Below are positions 50,751 to 53,700 of a stretch of DNA of 64,000 bases, piece by piece. This DNA comes from Hormiphora californensis. Its lineage: Eukaryota; Animalia; Ctenophora. The notes under the pieces are model-generated. The model worked only from the letters and a program-made list of their open reading frames with translations. It did not search any database and was not told the DNA's origin. The DNA is taken from positions 3,224,001 to 3,288,000 of the forward strand of contig CM035357.1 of the NCBI GenBank assembly GCA_020137815.1. Direction: 5' to 3'. A program made the translations under genes and the position numbers. The stretch's first letter is position 1, and every line of letters begins with the position of its first letter.

Positions 50751-53700
50751 ATGCTCGGAAAAGGGAAAGAGAAAAATGATTATGAACTTTTTGTGAAAGC
50801 CTTCCAAAAACCCACACAAATATATAAGTTTTTGAGCTATCGTCATCATGTTAATGTAAGTACTGATAAATTAAAAAGGAACATTGTATCAGTGTAGAAC
50901 TACTTATAATCTTTCAGCCCGTTTTCCTGCACCGAAGTCTTTCGTACATGCCCCATCGAAACTCTCGTCCCAAAAAATCCACAAAAACTGTTGAGGACGT
51001 CGTCAAACAGCTGTCTAAGAAGGTAAGGATTGTAGTGCAATATAATGTCACAATTCAGATTTACACAATACCCCATCTTTAGGGTGTTAGATTTTGGAGT
51101 CAGTTTTACTATATAATGCGAAAAGGGGTGAAACTTGATCCCCCCATGCATGTTTGGTGGTCCCTAAATCCCCGGTGCCCGGATTTTCAAAATTTTAGAT
51201 AAATACGATTTTCAAAAGTCAAATATGCTGCCATCTTTGTCCCAAAAACTAACGATTTTGCTGCCCAGTAAAATAAATGTCTAGAAAATTTTTAGAAATC
51301 ATTTATAAACCATTTATAAATCATTTAGAAAGTTTTAAAAAAAGTTTTAAAAAAGTGTTTTCACCCGGGCCCGGTCAGGAATCGAACCCGGACCTCACGC
51401 GTCAGAGTGGAGGCAGCACAGGCAGCACAAATTTACCACATATTTACATCGACGATTTTGCCTCATATTATGCAATATTAGCTTTACTTTTCCGGTTTAG
51501 GCTAAATCGTCGTCATCAAGATCAGATCACATCACCCAAAATTATAATAGAGACTAGTGACAGACCAACTTCCTATAGTCGTAAATGCCGATCTGTAAAT
51601 GCACTTTAACGGCCATATGGGCCCATTAATGGTGCGTCTCGCATGTGTTAGCTCGATTTTCAAAAACATGTGGTTTTCACTAAAGTGTTAGTTAGCCATC
51701 AAGGGTATCCAGATAACCTGGACGCAAACATTGACGTAAAATGTAGAGAATATGAAGCGCATGTCCTTTTATAAATTATCATTTCTTTTCTCTCTTTCTC
51801 TTTTTCTCTCACTATGGGTAAACCGGGGCAAAATGGTTCTCACCCCTGTTTAAAAAACCGGCTAGTCGGAGTCTCCTTTCCGCTATTTTGGTGCTAAGGA
51901 TAGGTAGATTTCCGATACCGTACAGCGTGGCATTATTGCTATTTGAAGGAGGGGTAATGGTTTTTATTGTGCCATCCGTAGCATCCTCGTGTAGGTACCG
52001 TTAAGACTCCTTTCCATGTCTTTGGTGAGCGTCCAGCTTTCGCACCCATACAACAACCGTTGCTACAAAGAGTCTGGCCTTGATCTTGTCGTTCAGCTTT
52101 GAATTCCAAACAGTCCTAAGCCCGTGACACGCATTCCATGCTTTGGCCTCTTCAACCTTAAGTTCCCTCTATTAGAGTCCCTTACCCACGATCCAAGTAT
52201 TAAAATCTTCACTCAACTTTATCCTAGTCCCATCAATGTATGGAGAGGACCGGGGTCTGGTATGCCCTCAACCATGAACTCTGTCTTCGCCCGGTTTATC
52301 TCGAGACCCACCTCCTTACAGACACTCTCTACCTCCCGTTGTTCAGTAAGAGGCACCACATACACTCACTGTACTGAAGTTTCCACCGACAGTATGTGGT
52401 GCGACGTTACTGGAGTTCGCACCGGTGCTGTATGCGGTCCCCCATAGCCACAATCAGCATACCCATCTTGGCACACACAAAAGACGTCATATTTCACTAA
52501 TTCGCCATTTATGAGTCCAAAACTAAGCATTTTATACCATATGTTGCTTCATAAGGCCATGTTTATATATGACTTATGAAGCTTCTCTGCAGCCATGTGA
52601 GGGAGCGAATTCCTATACTTCACCATACCACCGTCAGAGCATTGGCTTGACAGCCATACCATGATGGTCTGTAATATGTTGACAACCTCATTCCCTGCGC
52701 CGCTATACAGGCATATCTCACAATAGGTTGAAGGCGAAGAGAGAGTTAAAACGAGGGAAGGCACCTTCAAACTGACCGTGACGGATATCTGCGACAAAAC
52801 TAACTCTGGATTGGATTCCTATGAAGTCAAGATATTTCTGAAGAAAGTTGGAGTCACCGCTGTGGTATGTAGGGATCCTAGCGTTGTTCATACCGGGACA
52901 CGTTGAGACAGTGTTTTAGATAAATACTCGTCTATAAAATACTCTATAATTTCTATAATTTTTGAAAACCAACATGATTTACAGGAAAAAGATCGTAAGA
53001 GAAGAAAGATTAGTTTAATGGAAAAGCAATCAATCATCAAATATTTCAATGACCATCCTGGTATTAGTTTTGGTGAGGCTTCCAGGGTTTTGGGTAAGTA
53101 ACAAATCCAATTCAACATTCCTTGTTATGTTCAAACCCTCCTGTTTACGTTTGTAAAAGCGGAGCTTGCGAAAAGGGGGGTCGAGCTAGACAACTAATTC
53201 CAAGGGGTGGCTTACTTTGTCAGGTTATCACCAAGCCACTATTCGATGCATAAAACTAGATGAAGAGAGATTAATGAAAAAAGTTGCGACAGAAGAAACT
53301 TCGACTGTTATAGAGGTATGGCATTTTCAGAGCGGTTTATAATACTACCGAACAGTAGTTAATCCCCTGTGCGACAAGGAATATTTAAGTCACTGAGAAG
53401 TTTCACAAACTGTACAGATTTTCCTTCATCTAGGTCGATTCTTCTAAGTTGTGCGAGTCTTACGAGTCCGTTGCAGAACTAAAGTTTACCCCGAATCAAC
53501 GAAAGAAATCTCCCACTAAAATAAGTGCTGCCACCACAATTCGGTAATTAGTTAATTAGTTGATTATTCAATTAGTTATACCAGTCAGTTTTCAGTTGCA
53601 ACTCACATGTACAGCTGTTGTTGCTAGTACTCGTTGAAATCTTTCGTTTTAATAATACAATTAATTCTTTAGGGCATCTACGATAAATAAGTATAGTTCA

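Follow-up and report, generated by a model that had tools for sequence, protein, structure and literature searches.

It has long been asked how PRC2 locates its targets. In the systems described so far targeting relies on separate partners, namely PCL with its winged helix, AEBP2, JARID2 and Pho, which link the complex to DNA (PMC8864842, in part). In plants a transposon-derived partner of PRC2 is ALP1, a Harbinger transposase that antagonises the complex (PMC4890758, in part). All of these are separate, exchangeable subunits. For SUZ12 itself five N-terminal motifs are described, and the available sections of PMC10638273 mention neither a helix-turn-helix (HTH) domain nor ctenophores; those of PMC9018016 contain no match for the terms sought. 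In human PRC2 the basic loop of the C2 domain enters an acidic RBBP4 cavity of the second protomer, which leads to a dimer favouring chromatin binding, and linker DNA contacts the same module (PMC9255955, in part).

The capture of transposase-family domains by host proteins is known, and its occurrence inside a core subunit of PRC2 appears not to have been described. SETMAR is said to be a host-transposase fusion gene in which the domain is appended at the end. The HTH of CENP-B contacts DNA with a basic arm and its third helix. In KRABINER and other host-transposase fusions a transposase-family DNA-binding domain is spliced to a chromatin-regulatory protein (10.1101/2020.05.07.082677), and the available sections of that source do not mention SUZ12 or PRC2. 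In the openly available full texts searched we found no report of an HTH within SUZ12, and a passing mention elsewhere is possible.

The window analysed here, which is the whole stretch of 64,000 nucleotides, contains a SUZ12 gene with a two-exon insert of 67 residues at the basic-loop hairpin of the C2 domain. There is good reason to regard it as a real coding insert of the CENP-B_N/pogo HTH family in a live gene. In contrast to the exchangeable partners of PRC2, this domain would be part of the core chain itself, and in contrast to the fusions SETMAR and KRABINER it would be a single HTH within one of the folded domains of a scaffold protein that is essential, with a core PRC2 subunit as host and no remnant of an element. 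If true, the capture of transposase-family domains would reach beyond appended fusions of the SETMAR type and include insertion within the core scaffold of an essential complex, and DNA-encoded recruitment could be tested on one domain, the built-in HTH.

The SUZ12 gene

A SUZ12 gene of 15 exons was modelled on the + strand between 50750 and 58620, and every intron is of the GT-AG type (Table 1). Exon 57365-57528 encodes the VEFS box (phmmer against human SUZ12, E 7e-11) and exon 50750-50855 resembles residues 81-104 of the human protein (E 9e-5 to 2e-4), which shows that the N-terminal ZnB/WDB1 region is present. These two matches bear out the assignment of the host gene to SUZ12 that was made in the preliminary description. 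The three closest full-length relatives are P0152, a protein of 595 aa from an intron-free contig that was obtained by cluster look-up, and the proteins P0163 and P0164, which are close to it. P0152 is 44% identical to the window model over 458 columns. The C2 domain was identified by alignment to this protein, the C2 sandwich being placed at residues 85-284 according to the P0152 model, and the Zn_SUZ12 C2H2 zinc finger matches that of P0152 at 56-59%, the latter being recognised as PF23320 at E 8e-21. The domain order (ZnB/WDB1, C2, zinc finger, WDB2, VEFS) is the usual one and the same as in human SUZ12/Su(z)12 (PDB 5WAI, 6NQ3, 5HYN) and in P0152, P0163 and P0164. The window's protein differs from the known SUZ12s by a surplus of 67 residues at the basic loop, by the loss of the host KRK motif and by a one-base frameshift of exon 7 in the assembly.

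SUZ12 is rich in introns. Compact intronless housekeeping genes occur in the same window, i.e. PTPA, a ZNF830-like gene, an FCP1/CTDP1-like gene and an ABCB10-like transporter (2081-7570, 62006-63901).

Table 1. Exons of the SUZ12 gene and of its insert, in positions of the window.
Feature	Position	Strand	Evidence
SUZ12 exon, start of ZnB/WDB1 region; no upstream exon found	50750..50855	+	phmmer to human SUZ12 81-104
SUZ12 exon, WDB1	50918..51022	+	tblastn of P0152 38-80, 53%; phases
SUZ12 exon, C2 strands 1-2; 3' end is the site of the KRK basic loop, no basic residues here	52727..52864	+	alignment to P0152/P0163/P0164 and 47 others; spliced to 52985 in X9, X11
Insert exon 1: basic arm, predicted helix 1 (11-23) and helix 2 (29-36), CENP-B_N-like HTH	52985..53093	+	spliced joint; 1BW6 match; Atlas; AlphaFold
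Insert exon 2: likely recognition helix 3, then acidic linker returning to C2	53224..53315	+	Atlas leads; kept in organism B
SUZ12 exon, C2 from strand 3 on	53434..53543	+	blastp to P0152 128-160
SUZ12 exon 7 (C2), one-base frameshift at about 53691-53711, probably an assembly error	53673..53774	+	P0152 homology on both sides; acceptor scores; indels elsewhere in window
Two SUZ12 exons (53894-54087, 54260-54410): remaining C2 and linker	53894..54410	+	gene model; P0152 homology; 11/13 listed organism-B differences synonymous
Three SUZ12 exons (55490-55589, 55672-55736, 56129-56282): zinc finger and WDB2	55490..56282	+	gene model; Pfam Zn_SUZ12 on aligned part of P0152
Three SUZ12 exons (57085-57190, 57365-57528, 58405-58620): VEFS box and stop	57085..58620	+	phmmer to human VEFS, E 7e-11; gene model

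Position of the insert

The preliminary description gave coordinates for two exons of together 201 nt with GT-AG sites, entered and left in phase 0, and all of this was verified in the sequence. The exons of 109 and 92 nt have AG/GT ends, encode 67 residues and are separated by a phase-1 intron. For comparison the window model was aligned with 50 near-full-length SUZ12s, which were chosen from an HMMER search with the VEFS exon (best 150 of 162 proteins at E<=0.001) and from cluster look-up lists; 46 of them cover the hairpin and four do not. The hairpin segment comprises 94 aa (27 + 67) in the window versus 19-27 aa in all 46 comparators with coverage, i.e. the 67 residues are the exact surplus over every SUZ12 in the orthologue alignment that had been proposed as a check. 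The insert is located at the tip of the C2 hairpin that bears the basic loop of SUZ12, and this position, already suggested earlier, is supported by the alignment as well as by the AlphaFold model of P0152, in which the insert site is the loop 119-128 flanked by the strands 106-118 and 129-141. Region 85-284 of this model superposes on C2 domains with a Z of about 10 to the C2 domain of PI3K-gamma, and SUZ12 chains rank first overall. An intron may be present at the same loop in human SUZ12; a literature search gave no confirmation.

At the hairpin loop 39 of the 46 comparators have at least three consecutive K/R, as counted by eye. The host exons of the window's gene contribute no K/R at the loop tip, and the basic run comes from the start of the insert. 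As a whole the insert has a slight excess of basic residues (14 K/R versus 11 D/E).

In a tree of 86 zinc-finger/VEFS segments the window's SUZ12 is the sister of P0152, P0163 and P0164 with a support of 1.0. It is a long-branch SUZ12 of the animal type, transcripts of which turn up in seawater RNA, and judging from its intron style it may belong to a cydippid ctenophore. The insert is absent from P0152, P0163 and P0164 and is therefore dispensable in these sister lineages, which can serve as natural controls. No protein on record was found to carry it in word-based searches, which are insensitive: insert exon 1 gave no candidate against proteins of 22-72 aa, the VEFS exon yielded 0 of 19 candidates among longer proteins at low sensitivity (P0003 was missed), and residues 70-330 of P0152 yielded one of 1126 candidates (P0163). 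Metagenome scans gave 0 of 416 stretches with exon 53894-54087 and two of 410 stretches (L001, L002) with the VEFS alignment, both belonging to the insert-free lineage. The protein P0015 received a weak phmmer score with the insert (E 0.0095 among 150) and was dismissed as an HTH carrier; its hairpin has 26 aa.

Two further gene structures were observed during these searches. In L002 (419-992), a member of the insert-free sister lineage, the VEFS box contains an intron that is absent from the window's gene, and the last intron of the latter is missing. In P0153 and P0004 (JGI/IMG) a partial SUZ12 VEFS box lies downstream of a THAP domain (PF05485, E 4e-14) in one open frame, which in the case of P0153 is seen on three contigs. 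This is either a second transposon-type DNA-binding domain beside SUZ12 or a read-through of the gene call.

The insert as a probable CENP-B/pogo-type HTH

The insert was examined in halves (36 and 31 aa) in the Pfam, PDB, Atlas and fold searches. Among 177,635 PDB sequences the sole match of insert exon 1 at E<=10 is human CENP-B (1BW6, E 0.62), the alignment covering residues 4-33 of 1BW6 without a gap. In the ESM Atlas three CENP-B_N clusters are found on top for exon 1 (0.84-0.87; CENP-B_N range 0.83-0.87). Exon 2 alone retrieves an unnamed top cluster (0.82) as well as Tc5, BrkDBD, CENP-B_N, HTH_psq and HTH_ABP1_N clusters (0.76-0.81). All Atlas scores of both exons are below 0.9 and are to be taken as leads only, and the recognition value of exon 2 (1959) is below the mark of 2300. 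AlphaFold predicts both helices of exon 1 with a pLDDT of 84. The N-terminal HTH of P. bachei Cenpb2 shares 17 of 48 residues with the insert in one register, exon 1 accounting for 11 of 32 and exon 2 for 6 of 16; these identities were counted by eye and carry no E-value. Cenpb2 is found in row 122 of Table1.XLSX of PMC10027918 (in part), one of six HTH-type ctenophore rows among 10 of 52 rows that were chosen by species name. The available text and supplement of the same source contain no SUZ12, VEFS or insert motif.

Other searches gave no match. Pfam assigned no HTH family at E<=10 to any of six exons including both insert halves, and the PDB search with exon 2 retrieved unrelated WD40 proteins only. 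Foldseek and VIA-align with the two-helix model of exon 1 gave 0 matches at E<=0.001 (best Z 3.1); these blank fold searches are uninformative, since the model is half a domain. A basic arm, the helix spacing and a putative helix-3 pattern are common to the insert and the HTHs of CENP-B (N-terminal; PF04218, 1BW6), pogo/Tigger, pipsqueak, Brinker-type proteins and Cenpb2 (PMC10027918, in part). With 1BW6, the Atlas clusters, the predicted helices and Cenpb2 taken together, a HTH of the CENP-B/pogo family, as proposed in the preliminary description, is the best reading of an insert tested in halves. Judged from the sequence we consider a CENP-B_N/pogo-type HTH quite probable, as a best reading rather than a formal family call.

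In contrast to the CENP-B/pogo proteins the insert has one HTH, which is internal to the C2 domain instead of N-terminal and split by a phase-1 intron, and it lacks HTH_Tnp_Tc5, DDE and terminal inverted repeats (TIR). SUZ12 resumes 14 residues past helix 3, leaving no second HTH (HTH_Tnp_Tc5) or DDE domain; the three-frame reading of 52700-54500 contains no further open transposase frame, 52600-53700 holds only short repeats at chance level and no TIR or element remnant, and a second copy of the HTH is found nowhere else in the window. The direct capture from a transposase that had been proposed is thus not borne out. Since an intron runs through the HTH, its donor could just as well have been a domesticated CENP-B-like host gene as a transposon. 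Both domesticated CENP-B-like genes and transposons are listed for Pleurobrachia (supplement of PMC10027918, in part).

A possible role in chromatin binding

With a little better than even chances, the window's gene encodes a SUZ12 whose single CENP-B_N/pogo-type HTH would bind DNA and anchor PRC2 directly to chromatin. That the HTH of the insert has kept its DNA binding is reasonably likely. The HTH would project from the exposed hairpin, and for this reason the C2 sandwich would still fold. By analogy to CENP-B, the basic arm and the third helix would contact linker DNA. Since the second HTH is missing, only a short and loose preference for a few bases would be expected, which is not a targeting of the transcription-factor kind, and avidity would be added by the nucleosome contacts of PRC2. 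The KRK motif of the host may have decayed after the insert arrived, and the arm would now occupy the former site of the dimer loop.

The preliminary description had considered a sequence-specific targeting of H3K27 methylation. As only one HTH of the usual pair is present this was not upheld, and such a targeting by the insert seems unlikely. We also regard it as doubtful that PRC2 has become its own transcription factor, in which case the HTH would have replaced the dimer-forming motif and would, with no need of adaptors such as PCL or Pho, direct H3K27 methylation to a DNA motif; the motif would then possibly be the ends of cognate pogo elements.

It is rather improbable that the insert is translated and stands in for the basic loop or acts as a protein surface, with the arm docking in RBBP4 or blocking the dimer and an HTH that no longer binds DNA. 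Such a role would fit the position of the arm, at a site that is basic in most comparators and has lost the host motif, as well as the entry of the human loop into the acidic RBBP4 cavity (PMC9255955, in part), the single HTH and the mild basicity of the insert. However, both predicted helices of exon 1 and the helix-3 pattern line up in one register with a CENP-B-type protein, which exceeds what a basic patch requires, and in a related species (organism B) the opening 72 nt of insert exon 1 show the same degree of conservation as the adjacent host exon.

Transcription and conservation of the insert

The joint 52864>52985, for which an RNA check had been proposed, was seen in two of three RNA-labelled runs. 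X9 and X11, two seawater RNA-Seq samples of one study, each provide one contig of 151 nt that is spliced at a GT..AG intron with 120 nt skipped and 0 mismatches, and the two reach 41 and 58 nt into the insert; the third run, X13, does not cover the gene. RNA support thus extends to one of the three insert junctions by two read-length contigs. Two reads extend beyond exon 52727-52864; both enter the insert and none skips to 53434.

Organism B is represented by DNA run X7. One contig contains exon 52727-52864 followed by the 72 nt mentioned above, with 8 differences in 106 nt (about 92% kept) and no gap, and in the intron between them the middle is replaced (90 versus 137 nt). On a second contig insert exon 2 runs to the next SUZ12 exon (joint 53327>53401). 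Among the 40 differences listed of 152, 17 of the 22 in SUZ12 exons are synonymous, and the insert contains none of these 22 classified differences. The synonymous bias therefore argues for a live gene and not for selection on the HTH.

Either insert exon alone shifts the frame, so both would be included together, while both together can be skipped in frame. The decay of the KRK motif and the two reads entering the insert point to inclusion as the main form, with the insert replacing or displacing the dimer loop, and inclusion is probably the main isoform. Of the isoforms with and without the HTH suggested earlier, the skipped one is indeed allowed by the symmetric phases; it was not seen in any read, and its hairpin would have the normal length (27 aa) without a basic loop. 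We consider it quite improbable that the insert is a minor or regulatory cassette, which is usually skipped or of which exon 1 alone acts as a frameshifting poison exon, so that most SUZ12 would be without the HTH. The phase symmetry and the normal length of the skipped hairpin would permit this, the acceptor of insert exon 1 at 52985 is the weakest in the gene (score -2.1) and the first junction is the only one seen. Against such a cassette stand the reads leaving exon 52727-52864, both of which enter the insert, the missing basic loop of the skipped form, and insert exon 2, which extends the domain family of exon 1 and is retained in organism B.

The frameshift in exon 7

The true acceptor of exon 7 is 53673, as indicated by homology to P0152 and a site score of 5.2 versus -4.9 at the in-frame alternative 53692. 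The latter was rejected because of this score and because residues shared with P0152 would be lost; a 37-nt intron at 53691-53727 was likewise rejected, as it would remove a conserved strand. The homology to P0152 starts at 53673 in one frame and passes to the next after a few codons, which means that the exon carries one surplus base (or lacks two). The one-base shift falls within about 53691-53711, and all three frames from 53673 run into a stop. The frame is open in the other 14 modelled exons.

Frame changes are also found elsewhere in the window. The intronless PP5 gene on the - strand (about 1-1300) has several of them, which are likely assembly indels: the frame that matches residues 141-244 of human PP5 differs from that of residues 247-475, and the two are too close for an intron to lie between them. 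A tandem near-duplicate of 2.4 kb (38155-40509 versus 41160-43516) shows 4 mismatches as against 44 gaps, of which 29 measure 1 nt. This duplicate looks as if a repeat had been left uncollapsed in noisy long-read data. With four other long single-exon frames of the window uninterrupted, the indel noise is patchy and the shift in exon 7 could be real.

The frameshift noted in the preliminary description is thus real in the assembled sequence, and its reading as the mark of a dead gene is disfavoured by the indels in PP5 and in the duplicate. The shift is probably an assembly indel, and the favoured SUZ12 with a DNA-binding HTH would accordingly be encoded by a live gene. That the gene is a dead or dying SUZ12 paralogue with a real frameshift and an insert that is mere debris is very improbable, since the stops in every frame from 53673, which would suit it, are set against 14 open exons, spliced RNA, the synonymous bias in organism B and the uncorrected indels of the same window.

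Repeats are found within and next to the gene. A tandem repeat with a 17-nt unit fills most of one SUZ12 intron (56400-57070), and a repeat of about 32 nt forms large arrays in both orientations, which make up a long inverted structure directly 5' of SUZ12 (44500-49400).
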